NCBI GenBank assembly: GCA_038153405.1
Contig: JAYOYH010000013.1
Location: 14,162 to 78,161, forward strand
Length of the DNA stretch: 64,000 bases
DNA from: Gemmatimonadota bacterium
GTDB lineage: Bacteria > Latescibacterota > UBA2968 > UBA8231
Direction: 5' to 3'
The first letter of the stretch is position 1; each line of letters begins with the position of its first letter. Below are positions 27,820 to 34,799 of this stretch, in pieces. Below the pieces are notes generated by a model. That model worked only from the letters and a program-made list of their open reading frames with translations, did no database searches and was not told the origin of the DNA. The translations under genes were made by a program, and so were the position numbers.

Positions 27820-30519
27820 CTAGAGCGCCTTTACGCGGACAGGGCAGACCTTTAGCTCGGCCGTTTCCGTAATCGGATCGTATCCCGAACCCGTCAGAAT
27901 ATTGATGGGCACGTCGTTAAAGCTGAAACTGGCAAAGACCGTGCCGCGGGGCGAACGGGACGACGAGCGCACGCGAATATCGACGCTGCCGCGCGCGCTG
28001 CTCATGCGGCACATCGAGCCGTCGCGAAGGCCCCAGGCCGTCACGTCGTCGGGGTGCACTTCTAGACTTTCTTCGGCCAGCAGATACTCGATGCCCTGAG
28101 CGCGTCCGGTTTGCGTGCGCGTGTGGTACGACTGCAGGCGGCGGCCCGTCGTCAGCCAAATGGGAAAGTCGTCGTTGATGGTCTCGGCTGGATCGCGGTA
28201 GTGAATGGTTTTAAATAGACCGCGGCCATTGGTGAATTCGCCTTCGTGCAGAATGGGCGTACCGGGGTGGTTCTCATGCGGCACGGGCCAGTGATATTGG
28301 CCCCCTTCAATGCGATCCCAATCTAGTCCAGCGTAAATGGGCGAGAGACTGCACAACTCATTGAAGACGTCCTCGGCAGAGGAAAAGTCAAAGCCGTCAA
28401 AGCCGAGGCGCTGGGCGATTTGCGATATAATCCACCAGTCGGGCTGGGCCTGTCCGACTGGGGGGACGGCCTGGCGCAGTCGCTGCACCCGGCGTTCGGT
28501 GTTGGTACAGACGCCATCGGTTTCGGCCCACGACGTGGCCGGTAGCACCACGTCGGCCAACTCGGCGGTCTCTGTGAGAAAGATATCGATAACGACCAGG
28601 TGTTCTAGGCTGCGCAGAGCGTGCTCGCAGTGGGTGCGATCGGGATCGGACACCAGCGTATTTTCGCCGTCGATGAGCATAGCAAAAATATCTTCGCCGG
28701 CCAGGTCTAGTGCGCGCACCTTGGTGATGCCCTTCTCCGCATCCATTTCGCGGCCGTACAGCCGTTCGAACTTGGCCTTGTTTTCTGGCCGGTCTACGGC
28801 TTGAAAGCCCGGGTAGTTAGAGGGAACGGCACCTGAATCGCCAGCGCCCTGAATGTTGTTCTGGCCGCGCATGGGGTTGATGCCGGTGCCTTCGCGGCCA
28901 ATGTGGCCGGTCATCAGCGCCAGGTTGCACAGGCTCTGCACGTTGTCGACACCGCAGATGTGCTCGGTGATGCCCAAGGTGTAATAAATAGCACCCCGCT
29001 CGGCCGCGCCGTACCAGCGCGCTGCCGTTTCGATATCGGCCGCCGGCACGCCGCTGATACGCTCGGCCCATTCGGGCGTAAACTGGCGCACGTGCGCGAG
29101 GAATTCTTCCGCGCCCGTCGTGCGCGCATCCGTGAAGTCGCGGTCGACCAGTCCTTCGCGTTCGATGACGTGGGCCATGCCCAGCAGCAGGGCGACATCC
29201 GACCCGACGCGCAGCGGCAGGTAGAGATCGGCCATGTCGGCCAGATCGATGCGCCGGGGATCGGCCACGATGAGCCGGGCGCCGCGCGCAATCGCTCGTT
29301 TTAACCGCGTGGCAGCGACCGGATGACACTCCGTCATATTAGTGCCAATGCAGAAGATCACATCGGGTTTTTCCATGTCGGCGAGAGGATTCGACATGGC
29401 ACCGCGTCCTATGGTAGCGGCCAGACCGGCCACCGTAGGCGCGTGTCAGGCACGGCTGCAATTGTCTATATAATGTGTGCCATAGCCGCGGCGAATGAAT
29501 TTTTGCATGCAGTAGTCGGCCTCCGACGGCGTGCGGCCAGAGGCCACGCCGTAGATGGCGTGGCGACCATGCTTTTCGAATACGTTGCGAAAACCGTCGG
29601 CGGCTCGGTCGAGGGCGGTGTCCCAATCGGTCTCGTGCAACTGGCCGTCGCTGCCGCGGACCAGCGGCATTTTCAAGCGATCGCGGTGTTGGACAAAGTC
29701 AAAGGCGAACTGCCCTTTTACGCAGAGCGCTCCTTCGTTGGCCGGGCCGTCCATCGCCGGTTGAATGCCCACGAGCTGGTCGCCCTTGGTCAGCAGGTCG
29801 ACCGCGCAGCCCACGCCACAGTACGGGCAAACCGAACGCGTCTTGGCTATCTCGCCCTCGGACTCTGCAGCGCGCAGGGCTTTTTTATCGGCTAGGGCAC
29901 CGGTGGGACAGGTCTGCACGCACTGGCCGCAGAACGTGCAGGACGACTCCTTGAGAATGGCGTCGAATTCGGTAGTGATCTGCTTATTGAAGCCGCGCCC
30001 GCTGGCCGCTATGGCGTAGTCGCCTTCGCGCTCGGCGCAGACGCGCACGCAGCGGTTGCACGAAATGCACAGATCGTAGTCGCGTAGAATAAAGGGATTG
30101 TCATCGGCTGCGTGCGAAGTGCCCGACTGCGCTCCGGCAAAGCGCCCCGTACGCGCTGCGTAGCGGTCGACCCAGTTGGTCAATTCCTGCGAGGCATAGC
30201 CGCGCAGGGGATCTACGTCGACCTGGCGGTTTTCCGACACGACGAGTTCCAAGAGCGTCTTGCGGTGTTTTTCTAATGCTGTGGTCGCCGTGCGGACGAC
30301 CATGCCAGCCGTCGCCTTGGTCGTGCAGGAAGCGACGGGATTGCGCACTCCTTCCACCTCAACCACGCACAGCCTGCACGAGCCAAAGGGTTCGAGGCGC
30401 GGATCGTAGCACAGCGTCGGGATAGTGCTGTGCGCGCGTTGTGCAATCTCGTAAAGGGTTTCGCCCGGGCTAAAGGCGACCTCTGCGCCGTCCAAGGTAA
30501 TGGTTGACGTATCGCTCAT
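27820..30519 (-). CDS. fdhF: Selenocysteine-containing formate dehydrogenase alpha subunit (899 aa; UGA=Sec at 29446-29448)
   Basis: The two track ORFs (29446..30519 and 27820..29433) are in the same frame, joined as IDNCSRA-UGA-HAPTVAGL, the Mo/W-ligand position of FdhF-type enzymes. N-terminal 2Fe-2S and 2x4Fe-4S motifs, CPYCGVGC, PMRGQNNIQG. Confidence 0.95.
29400..29445 (-). promoter_or_regulatory. Bacterial SECIS element
   Basis: After the UGA: 11-nt spacer CACGCGCCUAC, then stem GGUGGCC / loop GGUCU / GGCCGCU, with lower pairing GCG-CCUA / UAGG-CGC. Confidence 0.8.
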
Positions 30520-30527
30520 GACAAAGC

Positions 30528-32207
30528 CTATGGTTGCGCCAGATGGCGTTTGATCTGCTCGGGAAAGTGCGTTAGCAAGCTGCGGGTTATATGGGGGGCG
30601 GCCGCGCCGAGTCCGCAGGCGCTAGTGGCCATCATGGTTGCGCCTATGTCTTCGACCTCATCGCGCCAGGCGGCCAGATCGGTAAGTGGCGCAGTGGGAC
30701 TGAGGCGTTCGGCAAGGCGCTGCGTGCCAATGCGGCAGGGAAAGCACTTGCCGCACGATTCCTCGGCAAAAAAGTGCATGGCCTGGTGGGCGATCTCGAC
30801 CATATTGCGGCTGTCGTCAAAGACCATGATGCCGCCAGCACCCAGAAAGGATCCGTGCGCGCGAATGGAGGGATCGTCCAGCGTGGCGTTGAGGCCGTCG
30901 CCGGCTAGGAAACCGCCCGACAATCCGGCCATGGTCACGGCTTGGATGCGCCGTCCCTCGAGCGGACCGCCGGCCCAATCGCACAGCAGCGTTTGCAGCG
31001 GCAGGCCCAGCGGCACTTCGTAATTGCCTGGCTGCTGCACGTCGCCCGAGAGGCTGATGAGCTTGGTGCCGGCAAAGTCGCCCAGACCCAGTGACTGGTA
31101 CCAGGCGGCCCCGTGCACGACAATGGGCGCGACGGCGGCCAGCGTCTCGACGTTGTTTACGGCGGTGGGCTGGTCGTTAAAGCCGTGCGTGACCGGAAAA
31201 GGGGGGCGGTTGCGCGGGTAGGGATGTTTTCCCTCCAGGCTGTTGAGCAGGGAGCCTTCCTCGCCGCATATATAGGCGCCGGCGCCGCGGCGCAGGTGGA
31301 TATCGAAGGGTACGTCGGTTCCGCCGATATGGCGTCCGAGGAAGCCTTCGGCGCGCGCTTCATCCAGCGCCGTTGCCAATCGCCGTGCCGTTTCTGGATA
31401 CTCGTAGCGCAGGTAGATAAAGCCGAGTTCCGCGCCCGTGGCGTAGGCGGCCAAGATCATTCCTTCGATAACGGCATGGGGGTCGTAGTCGAGCAGCACG
31501 CGGTCTTTAAAACAGCCGGGCTCGCCCTCATCGGCATTGCACACGACGACCTTGGGGCCGCCGGGTGCCTCGGCTACGGCGCGCCACTTTTGCGCGGTGG
31601 GAAAGCCGGCTCCGCCGCGTCCGGCTAGTTGACTATCGCCGACGAGTTGGATGAGCGCCTGCGGACTATCTTGCAGGGCCTTGCCTAAGGCCAGGTAGCC
31701 GCCCGTGCGCCGGTAGCCTTCCATGGTATTGCGCTCTCCGTCGCGAATGTGGGCAAATAGACATTCTTCGCGGCCGCCGGGATTGGCCACGGGCAGGGCC
31801 GAGGGTTGGAGGGTGAGTGGGTCACCGGGTGCCGCTGTGTGTAGCCGATGGCCGATGAGCACGGGAATGGGCTGGTCGCAGCGGCCGGCACAGGGCATCT
31901 CGCTGGCCCCCTCCAATTGGGCTAGCAGTTGGTGCGCTCCGCGCTGACAGCAGATGGGGCCCGTGCAAACGCGCGGGGCCTGCTGGCCGGGGGGCTGTCG
32001 CGAGAAGTGATGGTAGAATGTGACCGTGGCATAGAGGTCGGCCAGGGGCGTGCGCAGCGCGCGCGCGATGGTGCGCAGCGCCTCATCGCTAAGGTAGCCA
32101 TCTCGGTCGTGGAAGGCGTGCAGGACGCCGAGCAGAGGAGCCGGCTGATCCTTCCATTGGGCGATGAGGGCGTCGTCGGATATTGCCGGGTTTTGTTCAT
32201 TGGACAT
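30528..32207 (-). CDS. NAD-linked FDH diaphorase subunit (NuoE-NuoF fusion)
   Basis: NuoE-like YATVTFYHHF, CTGPICC, CAGRC. NuoF-like GRGGAGFPT, CNADEGEPG, GAGAYICGEE, ESCGKCFPCRIG, SACGLG. Confidence 0.92.
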   Translation of the reverse strand: MSNEQNPAISDDALIAQWKDQPAPLLGVLHAFHDRDGYLSDEALRTIARALRTPLADLYATVTFYHHFSRQPPGQQAPRVCTGPICCQRGAHQLLAQLEGASEMPCAGRCDQPIPVLIGHRLHTAAPGDPLTLQPSALPVANPGGREECLFAHIRDGERNTMEGYRRTGGYLALGKALQDSPQALIQLVGDSQLAGRGGAGFPTAQKWRAVAEAPGGPKVVVCNADEGEPGCFKDRVLLDYDPHAVIEGMILAAYATGAELGFIYLRYEYPETARRLATALDEARAEGFLGRHIGGTDVPFDIHLRRGAGAYICGEEGSLLNSLEGKHPYPRNRPPFPVTHGFNDQPTAVNNVETLAAVAPIVVHGAAWYQSLGLGDFAGTKLISLSGDVQQPGNYEVPLGLPLQTLLCDWAGGPLEGRRIQAVTMAGLSGGFLAGDGLNATLDDPSIRAHGSFLGAGGIMVFDDSRNMVEIAHQAMHFFAEESCGKCFPCRIGTQRLAERLSPTAPLTDLAAWRDEVEDIGATMMATSACGLGAAAPHITRSLLTHFPEQIKRHLAQP

Positions 32208-32312
32208 AGTGTAATTAATATCAACGGGCCGCATCTGGTCAAGTCGTTTGATGGCGCGGCCGTATGATCGTAGATTGTGCAGTCACCACCGGTCAAATCG
32301 CGGAGAGCACGC

Positions 32313-33563: not shown

Positions 33564-34109
33564 ATGGCAGACGTATTAATTGTGGGCGATGGCCCGGCCG
33601 GTTTAAGCGCGGCGCTCTTCTTGGCCAAGAACGAGATGAGCGTTAAAGTGTTTGGCCTAGACAAGACCTTGATGCACAAGGCGATGGTCTTCAACTATCT
33701 GGGCATCCCGGAGATCACCGGCAGCCAGTTCCAGAAGATTGGTCGGCAGCAGGTGCAGCACTTCGGTGGGGCGTTGCTCGATGTCGAAGTGGATAGCGTG
33801 GAAAAAGTCGATGGGGGCTTCACCCTGCGTGCGGCGGACGGAACGGAGCACGAGGGGGCTTATTTGATTCTGGCCACGGGTCCGAGCAATCCGCTGGCCG
33901 AAAGCCTCGGCATCGAAAAGGGCGCAGAGGGCATGGTATCGGATCGCAATGGCCGCACCGCCATTGATGGACTCTATGTAGTAGGGTGGAGCTCGCGCCT
34001 GAAGAAAATACAGGCCGTGATTTCGGCCGGCGATGGCGCCTGCGCCGCGCTAGATATTCTATCGGCCCGCGCTGGCGAAGATATGCATGATTTTGACGTG
34101 ATCGAATAA
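33564..34109 (+). CDS. Short FAD-dependent oxidoreductase (thioredoxin-reductase-like FAD domain only)
   Basis: VLIVGDGPAGLSAA, LILATG, TAIDGLYVVG, QAVISAGDG. 181 aa, no CxxC. Confidence 0.8.
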   Translation: MADVLIVGDGPAGLSAALFLAKNEMSVKVFGLDKTLMHKAMVFNYLGIPEITGSQFQKIGRQQVQHFGGALLDVEVDSVEKVDGGFTLRAADGTEHEGAYLILATGPSNPLAESLGIEKGAEGMVSDRNGRTAIDGLYVVGWSSRLKKIQAVISAGDGACAALDILSARAGEDMHDFDVIE

Positions 34110-34166
34110 AAAATGGCATTCCTCCACGGACTCGGCCTTTTGGGCTTTGGCCGCGAAGGAATGCCA
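34108..34166 (-). terminator. Intrinsic terminator oriented for a minus-strand transcript
   Basis: tggcattcct (34114-34123) / aggaatgcca (34157-34166). The A6 at 34108-34113 gives a U-tract only on the minus strand. Confidence 0.65.
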
Positions 34167-34187
34167 AGCGGGTAACACTCAGAGTTG
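34108..34187 (-). ncRNA. Putative ~80-nt sigma-54-dependent small RNA
   Basis: Lies between a consensus sigma-54 box and a hairpin (UGGCAUUCCU...AGGAAUGCCA) followed by U6 on the minus strand. No ORF within. Confidence 0.55.
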
Positions 34188-34197
34188 CCTGTGAATT

Positions 34198-34213
34198 AGC
34201 AAGGCTCGTGCCA
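34198..34213 (-). promoter_or_regulatory. sigma-54 (-24/-12) promoter TGGCACGAGCCTTGCT
   Basis: Exact match to the consensus TGGCACG-N4-TTGCW, in an intergenic region. Confidence 0.8.
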
Positions 34214-34241
34214 GCGCATAGAGCCGGCGTTGTGAATTTCC

Positions 34242-34254
34242 TAAATTCTTGATT
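34242..34254 (-). promoter_or_regulatory. IHF-binding consensus AATCAAGAATTTA
   Basis: Matches WATCAANNNNTTR, with an A-rich tract on its 5' side, about 30 bp upstream of the sigma-54 box. Confidence 0.6.
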
Positions 34255-34267
34255 TTATTTGTTTTAT

Positions 34268-34313
34268 AAAAATAGCGACGTTCTCTTTGCGCATGGAGAA
34301 CGTCGCTATTTTT
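34268..34313. repeat. Perfect 18-bp inverted repeat (enhancer site or bidirectional terminator)
   Basis: aaaaatagcgacgttctc-N10-gagaacgtcgctattttt. Confidence 0.9.
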
Positions 34314-34481
34314 TCTCTATGCGGTTGAATGTAGGGAGAATTTATCCCCATTGCCTGCGCTGCCGTAGAGGCAATGGGGCGGGGACGGACGATTGCCGAA
34401 TGCCTCGTAAGTTGTTGACTTTTTAGAGTCGTAAGCATTATATTGCGATCAGTTCCTGTTCTTTCAGATGGGTGTGCAGCT

Positions 34482-34799
34482 ATGATCTGGACGATGTTAG
34501 CCATGCTCTGCGTGGTGGCTACGAAATTCCTCACCTCCGTGCGTCTGCGCGGGCTGCGGGCTAAGTTCGAATCGATTCAACCTGAGATCGATGATCTGCG
34601 CCTTAAAGTGTCCCAGACCGAAGAGGAAATGGAAGCGCTGCGGTTGAAGGTTGAAGAACGAGAACAACTGCTCACCAACTTGGGCGATGTGGTGCGTGTT
34701 CTCGAAGATAGTTTGAAGCGGCCCATCACCGATGTCGACACGCAGGATCGCGTGCAACTTGTGGAGTCTACCGTCGTTGAAGAAGGGGCCGGTGTCTGA
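34482..34799 (+). CDS. Small N-terminally anchored coiled-coil protein
   Basis: Hydrophobic MIWTMLAMLCVVAT, then a heptad-rich E/K/L segment. Own putative promoter (TTGACT-N18-TATATT, 34415-34444) and terminator. Confidence 0.75.
   Translation: MIWTMLAMLCVVATKFLTSVRLRGLRAKFESIQPEIDDLRLKVSQTEEEMEALRLKVEEREQLLTNLGDVVRVLEDSLKRPITDVDTQDRVQLVESTVVEEGAGV

Follow-up and report, generated by a model that had tools for sequence, protein, structure and literature searches.

Among stand-alone small RNAs, GlmY and Qrr1-5 are transcribed from their own -24/-12 promoters under an enhancer-binding protein and end in intrinsic terminators; they rely on Hfq or RapZ, and their targets are non-flagellar. OmrA and OmrB of E. 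coli are Hfq-dependent. These two RNAs use a 5' seed to lower FlgM, so promoting class III genes (PMC7549644), and are driven by EnvZ/OmpR rather than by a flagellar sigma factor (PMC11187230). FlgM keeps sigma-28 inactive (PMC11187230), and FliO is a core component of the export system (PMC12403147). In C. jejuni, the RpoN-dependent FlmE (CJnc230; 88-98 nt) represses flgM at the ribosome-binding site, raises late flagellar genes, arises mostly by RNase III cleavage of the flgE mRNA and has Cj1387c as a second target (PMC11187230). CjNC1 and CjNC4 of Campylobacter (CJnc10/CJnc170, FlmR) are short and Hfq-independent, target leaders of sigma-54 flagellar genes, are conserved jointly with their targets, have paralogues and, being sigma-28-driven, provide feedback from late genes (PMC4626219; PMC11187230).

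In the window, by which we mean the whole 64,000-nt stretch of DNA analyzed here, we found a minus-strand locus (Table 1) that, judged by its sequence and its relatives, is a real, unannotated, class-wide sigma-54 small RNA of Ca. Latescibacterota with two well-supported flagellar targets, flgM and fliO. Like FlmE, the RNA is predicted to depend on RpoN, to use a single-stranded stretch for pairing with the ribosome-binding region of flgM (a prediction that holds mainly in family f1) and to raise late flagellar genes. Unlike FlmE, it is stand-alone and has its own sigma-54 box away from flagellar clusters: rather than behind flgE, it lies between an oxidoreductase gene and a coiled-coil gene on another contig. 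The second target is fliO instead of Cj1387c and the phyla differ, the two RNAs being set apart by description and not by sequence comparison. It likely works as FlmE does while being unrelated to it, a stand-alone translational repressor. With CjNC1 and CjNC4 it has in common its short length, Hfq independence, targeting of sigma-54 flagellar leaders, conservation jointly with its targets and the existence of paralogues, whereas its promoter is a sigma-54 and not a sigma-28 promoter and it would hit a sigma-54 gene and flgM together. It shares the sigma-54 promoter and terminator layout with GlmY and Qrr1-5 but has flagellar targets and no Rfam match. The RNA stands apart from FlmE, OmrA/OmrB and CjNC1/CjNC4 in that its origin, promoter and second target differ. 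A literature search whose scope left aside subscription papers and the supplementary motif lists of comparative screens returned no small RNA aimed at fliO and none described in Latescibacterota, although the RNA could appear in those sources.

Table 1. Coordinates of the small RNA locus in the window and of related elements in other genomes (G numbers, genomes; g, genera; f1 to f4, families of the class; G000, the genome holding the window)
Feature	Position	Strand	Remarks
Predicted 80-nt small RNA	34108..34187	-	+1 placed 12 nt past the -12 GC; family alignment
Conserved 5' core CUCUGAGUGUUACCCGCU, predicted seed	34167..34184	-	begins at about +4; near-invariant in 35 aligned members
Intrinsic terminator	34108..34166	-	stem 34114-34166 plus U6 34108-34113
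Sigma-54 -24/-12 box TGGCACGAGCCTTGCT	34198..34213	-	
IHF consensus AATCAAGAATTTA in AT-rich stretch	34242..34254	-	possible site; exact match poorly conserved
18-bp inverted repeat with A/T tracts	34268..34313	+	likely plus-strand terminator, not enhancer (presumed role)
Candidate upstream activator site	34334..34349	.	similar to the GG(A/C)A-N4-(A/T)TTCC motif found at sigma-54 promoters of flagellar genes; a weak match in G000
Convergent neighbor, thioredoxin-reductase-like FAD oxidoreductase, short	33564..34109	+	181 aa
Divergent neighbor, coiled-coil protein	34482..34799	+	105 aa; no known family
Sigma-70-like promoter of the 105-aa coiled-coil gene	34415-34444		
Paralogue (G040)	L222:2643-2917		
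Paralogue (G038)	L223:2424-2698		
Paralogue (G083)	L224:2917-3026		
Paralogue (G055)	L225:1676-1788		
Paralogue (G042)	L226:2765-2881		
Paralogue (G063)	L230		
'MPIF...' ORF	L222:1582-2514		
'MPIF...' ORF	L223:2764-3849		
'MPIF...' ORF	L224:1854-2855		
'MPIF...' ORF	L225:1872-2867		

The initial annotation had read a palindrome, an IHF consensus, an exact sigma-54 box, an unpaired leader and a U6-tailed hairpin, all on the minus strand, as a stand-alone sigma-54-dependent small RNA of no assignable family, and every one of these motifs lies on that strand where it was placed, with the leader running from 34187. The gap to the next minus-strand gene (30528-32234), put at about 2 kb, measures 1.87 kb and contains two plus-strand genes, as described; positions 27820-32234 of the minus strand carry a formate-dehydrogenase-like cluster in which NuoE and NuoF are fused into one protein of 568 aa. 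The folding energy of the 86-nt stretch is -35.2 kcal/mol (z -4.05), a value reached by none of 200 shuffles, and the RNA's U-tract overlaps the stop codon of the convergent oxidoreductase gene. Both long hairpins escaped the terminator scanner owing to the loop size it allows. Small shares of matching RNA-seq were found in five runs, and assembled RNA-seq contigs from four runs cover parts of the flanking genes and not the RNA; short RNAs rarely form contigs, so that this gap carries no weight either way.

BLAST of the region against 60 relatives gave matches that end exactly at the sigma-54 box: the core CUCUGAGUG(U/G)UACC, the box and the terminator are kept, while the spacer and the upstream DNA have diverged. 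The possibility that relatives keep only the hairpin is thereby refuted: conservation falls on the box and the leader, and the stem covaries (among eight aligned f1 members, 94% of cells are paired and 8 of 16 pairs have changed on both sides, figures that kinship inflates). Searching 132 genomes of the class with a core pattern, backed by inspection by eye of 30 returned and 20 fetched loci, gave 37 carriers, to which a covariance model including the promoter added four, so that the family is present in 41 of 132 genomes, in one copy each apart from a duplicate at a contig end in G004. In 40 of the 41 the box lies 27-31 nt upstream of the core, which places the core start at about +2 to +6; the remaining genome, G033, has lost the box and changed the core. 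Members form two subtypes, in which the core is followed by CGCY (f1) or by GAUUGGUC (f2-f4), and vary between 65 and 90 nt through loop indels. The RNA is a unit with its own promoter and intrinsic terminator, a conserved and weakly structured seed and no conserved ORF. Promoter, core, terminator, distribution, complementarity and covariation are in this sense established from sequence.

Beyond these genomes, a GTDB-wide scan with a looser pattern returned 57 loci, which comprise 35 family members (33 full length, all with a terminator) and 22 unrelated matches, 4 of which passed the terminator test. Most of the family loci bear the titles Ca. Latescibacterota, Gemmatimonadota or uncultured bacterium; one is titled Planctomycetota. 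All 38 metagenome matches to box plus core carry stem and U-tract, though many repeat the same species. The covariance model found nothing in 36 genomes from ten other families of the phylum, and the single match in viral contigs lacks promoter and terminator. RNAalifold yielded no consensus over all 35 members because MAFFT misaligns the subtypes, and the covariance model (R1) consequently has only 7 pairs and includes the promoter. The seven Rfam matches at E<=10 over the window stretch all fall far below gathering scores and none is on the RNA, and ten homologue loci gave none at E<=0.05. Three known kinds were considered and rejected. Hfq-dependent RNAs (OmrA/B, Qrr, GlmZ) fail on the absence of Hfq from all 132 genomes and of any Rfam match. 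A CsrB/RsmZ sponge would have repeated GGA motifs in loops, which are absent, GGA occurring only within the stem. Finally, GAGUGGUACC resembles a T-box leader, which is defined by an invariant UGGN bulge and an upstream stem I before an ORF, but the family reads UGU in g1 and g14 and UGA in G034, the core starts at +4, no ORF follows and Rfam gave no hit.

Taken with the presence of rpoN, the conserved box and leader and the covarying stem support the proposed stand-alone sigma-54-dependent small RNA, whose transcription is predicted from these features, and we consider it very probable that a functional RNA is encoded here. That the element is only the terminator of the oxidoreductase gene, or an antisense RNA to it, is largely refuted and very hard to sustain: the two are convergent and overlap at the stop codon in g1, g5 and g14, and a plus-strand transcript ending at 34268-34320 would overlap the entire RNA, yet many relatives have the oxidoreductase without the RNA element, G042 has the element beside a different neighbor, and the distribution of the element tracks flagella.

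This last association is strong. Whereas rpoN occurs in 129 of the 132 genomes, fliP occurs in 42 and flgM-like matches in 50, a few of them weak; 40 of 41 RNA carriers have fliP or flgM, and the other one, G023, holds fliA, flhA and flagellins. Among genomes with neither fliP nor flgM the RNA is present in 1 and absent in 79 of 80, and 12 of 52 flagellated genomes lack it (Fisher p 7e-22, overstated by kinship); a laxer model search in 10 of these 12 gave nothing convincing. In genus g14 the RNA and flagella occur in the same 5 of 31 genomes, and g19 (21 genomes) and g22 (15 genomes) have neither. Four genomes (G015, G059, G033 and G126) have decaying flagellar sets without fliP and still retain the RNA and flgM; fliA is split in G059 and G033, and erosion in G033 extends to the promoter, the core and the 5' half-site of flgM.

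Taken alone, a strict sigma-54 box is weak evidence, as the genome contains 8 of them and 5 copies of the reversed pattern; the narrow range of box-to-core distances among carriers and the terminators of the metagenome matches remove chance as an explanation. The expected rpoN gene is present, with 13 strong enhancer-binding proteins (17 sigma-54 activator domain matches), and for ihf there are four genes assignable to the HU/IHF family as a whole. The proposed IHF site is an exact consensus in a region that is AT-rich in most members, but the exact form recurs in only 2 of 40 promoters, and forms with at most one mismatch in 16 of 40 (a count for which no null was computed). The 18-bp palindrome, proposed as the enhancer, finds no support in that role: its sequence is not conserved, only 5 of 40 promoters have arms of at least 10 bp, and the plus strand of the palindrome reads as a hairpin of -28 kcal/mol followed by T6, so that in the simplest reading it is probably the terminator of the oxidoreductase mRNA. 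A second inverted repeat of 11 bp upstream of the promoter (34346-34379) was not seen in relatives.

A better enhancer candidate is the flagellar upstream motif GG(A/C)A-N4-(A/T)TTCC, learned from 30 fliO promoters, which beats shuffles (p<=0.05) in 19 of 39 RNA promoters and scores highly at the flgF, flagellin and flgB promoters of G000, as well as occurring at several non-flagellar promoters. The candidate site in the window scores 5.4 (p=0.07; rank 16 of 51 boxes in G000) at an offset of -136, identical to that at the flagellin and flgB promoters. High-scoring copies also precede uncharacterized genes with sigma-54 promoters in G000 (C9:82197/82341, C17:88583, C10:74296 and C61:15743), which are likely further regulon members.

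The complement of the core was first noticed behind a sigma-54 box in the flagellar contig of G000, where the gene is fliO, between fliN and fliP; the RNA locus and the flagellar genes sit on different contigs. When the core was scanned for duplexes with 4002 roughly predicted start regions of G000, flgM (identified by PF04316) came first and fliO fourth; a canonical sigma-28 promoter lies directly upstream of flgM. Since 25 shuffled cores do as well with their best hits (-24.8 to -30.5) as the real core does in G000 (-27.3 and -25.0), the case for these targets rests on the other genomes. There, 14 of 21 f1 carriers have an flgM window (-40 to +15) within the top 5% of background, versus 2 of 11 carriers in f2-f4, where flgM leaders are mostly about 15 nt long. 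Whole flgM leaders, with opening costs included, outperform dinucleotide shuffles (p<=0.05) in 17 of 21 carriers of f1 and in 4 of 9 non-carriers (the G012 leader was shortened by the search pattern); G013, G027 and G125 retain the flgM site. For fliO, with starts picked by eye, 15 of 24 carriers have a top-5% window, as do 5 of 10 non-carriers by best-of-six variants; the site is absent or fails in G026, G061 and G062. As a control, 24 other flagellar-cluster families with at least 8 carrier windows each placed 12 of 328 windows in the top 5%, compared with 10 of 17 for fliO in the same run. Left out were, for flgM, G029, G055, G064 and G080 (partial or doubtful match) and G018, G040 and G042 (no start found) and, for fliO, G010, G011, G012, G038, G042, G080, G083 and G127 (contig end or insertion).

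Two other candidate targets were rejected, namely fliF (scan rank 25), which is not conserved (2 of 15), and flagellin starts in G000, where a perfect 10-nt match at C1:205822 is not conserved across f1; a loose flagellin pattern in two genomes was uninformative. Pairing of the RNA with the flgM and fliO leaders appears highly probable. The main target in f2-f4, where the flgM leader is mostly too short, would be fliO, perhaps together with the major flagellin. G000 has eight flagellin-like genes, and its FlgM (L244:8385-8837, C1) has 151 aa with two FlgM stretches. In non-carriers of genus g13, flgM leaders (L258, L259, L266 and L272) keep GCGGGU paired in cis with ACCCGC, as if the trans partner had been replaced by a hairpin.

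RNA and targets have also changed together. In G034 the RNA core reads GAGUGAUUCCC and the fliO leader GGGAAUCACUC; in G021, GUGGUACCC of the RNA pairs with GGGUACCACU; in f2, GAUUGGUC faces GACCAA in the leader, opposite UUGGUC; CGCUC of the g14 RNA pairs with GAGCG; and in g25 the whole 22 nt are paired in four blocks. Own-genus pairs exceed permuted pairs, after centering, for fliO (p=0.0008, 13 genera; f1 alone, p=0.06) and for flgM in f1 (p=0.005, 9 genera), a signal that is driven in part by family-level ancestry, as kin are not independent. Two close relatives of the same genus, G003 and G007, lack the RNA and both sites. Against the trend, fliO of G028 pairs better with the RNA of G034 than with its own, and flgM of G002 and G005 with the G-type.

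Such covariation would arise as well if the core were a DNA site for a regulator acting just past flagellar promoters in either orientation, the RNA being a by-product or acting otherwise. All three sites do lie directly after a promoter, GGTACC is palindromic, a wobble-bias test was indecisive (12 vs 7, p=0.33), and a same-sense core look-alike precedes an unrelated ORF in f2-f3. We nevertheless regard a DNA site as improbable, because half-site spacing differs within one genome (a 1-nt bulge in fliO, a 3-nt loop in flgM), reaches 20-50 nt and is hairpin-filled in other genera, and because little else is conserved in the RNA that would need such control. In G026, G014, G126 and G128, and in the incomplete non-carrier G125, the flgM half-sites flank an inserted hairpin that only an RNA duplex could bridge, which points to RNA pairing.

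Our results lead us to propose, with a probability of roughly two in three, that the RNA represses translation of flgM and fliO and so acts as a middle-to-late flagellar switch. The sigma-54 promoter would express the 80-nt RNA along with the class II (middle) flagellar genes; the RNA would pair through its 5' end, free of Hfq, with the flgM and fliO leaders beside their ribosome-binding sites and lower translation. As FlgM holds sigma-28 and FliO belongs to the export system, less FlgM would free sigma-28 and bring late (filament) genes forward, and less FliO would damp further export-gate assembly. A sigma-54 promoter with the shared upstream motif also precedes fliO, so the action of the RNA on this gene would amount to an incoherent feed-forward loop; the RNA likely helps to time flagellum assembly. 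Transcription, pairing in the cell, a shared activator, repression over activation and the flagellar effect are what we infer from the sequences.

The direction of regulation depends on where the RNA pairs. Its CUCUG half pairs 12-16 nt upstream of the start in flgM and, in fliO, on or beside the Shine-Dalgarno sequence, which makes repression the most likely outcome. The flgM duplex of G000, however, stops 2 nt short of the likely Shine-Dalgarno sequence, computed accessibility shows a modest fall or none upon pairing in several genomes, and some 90-170 nt separate the fliO site from the start codon in G021 and G014. The same RNA could instead activate or stabilize the same targets by covering the first bases of the mRNA, thus protecting its 5' end or opening a leader hairpin. 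Both sites begin within about 6 nt of predicted mRNA 5' ends, the G000 flgM leader by itself forms a stem that includes the likely Shine-Dalgarno sequence, the long fliO leader of G021 carries its site at the 5' end, well away from the start codon, and fliA lies downstream in the fliO gene run, so that polar repression would oppose the effect on flgM. Activation is nonetheless rather unlikely in our estimate: the CUCUG half keeps its distance from the flgM start whatever the leader length, and in f2 it pairs with the GGAG Shine-Dalgarno sequence itself and in G034 reaches the start codon. If translational repression is correct, this would be the second, independent case in which a sigma-54 small RNA acts on FlgM at the middle-to-late checkpoint. 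The great distance between its phylum and Campylobacter would suggest convergence of the circuit. An uncultured phylum would gain a regulatory RNA with named targets, whose natural compensatory variants are testable culture-free, and the RNA may serve as a model for Hfq-free pairing.

Families f2-f4 also contain paralogues without a sigma-54 box (Table 1) that share AGUGGUACCGAUUGGUC and the terminator, lie in tandem in two genomes and have a sigma-70-like promoter ahead of the second tandem copy. Most have an upstream hairpin with (C/U)UCGGAGUGGC, complementary to the major flagellin start. The sequence ATGCCACTCCGAGT occurs in nine f2-f4 genomes (L351, L355, L356, L359-L362, L365 and L366) and is the major flagellin start in 5 of 5 genomes where the gene was checked; a neighboring flagellin encodes the same MPLRV with other codons, and RNA pairing possibly constrains the codon choice. 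In the f2-f4 members and paralogues (alignment A4), a GG-UAG-GA-stem-GA-CC motif with a covarying stem sits inside the terminator loop. It fits the kink-turn consensus and is absent from f1, including the RNA of the window.

A protein-binding decoy, be it a CsrA sponge or a GlmY-like RNA, with pairing secondary, could draw on this internal-loop motif, on the paralogues and on the csrA gene within the flagellar cluster; it seems quite improbable, slightly more so than a DNA site, as the motif is missing from f1, the only GGA of the G000 RNA lies inside the terminator stem, and the conserved part is the part that matches the mRNAs. Returning to translational repression, we tentatively entertain a joint reading, which we think doubtful as a whole, of an old Hfq-free switch in which one seed frees sigma-28 (flgM) and throttles the export-gate operon (fliO), some targets being bound across a three-way junction. 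The switch would have been rewired between families (flgM plus fliO in f1; fliO plus flagellin in f2-f4), with kink-turn paralogues under other sigma factors in f2-f4 carrying a second seed against the flagellin start, would have arisen independently of the RNA layer of Campylobacter, and would use a kink-turn-binding protein as chaperone.

Located 5' of the paralogues is a low-complexity ORF beginning 'MPIF...' (310-360 aa), which has no Pfam family and was not found in G000; its leader carries a same-sense look-alike of the core.
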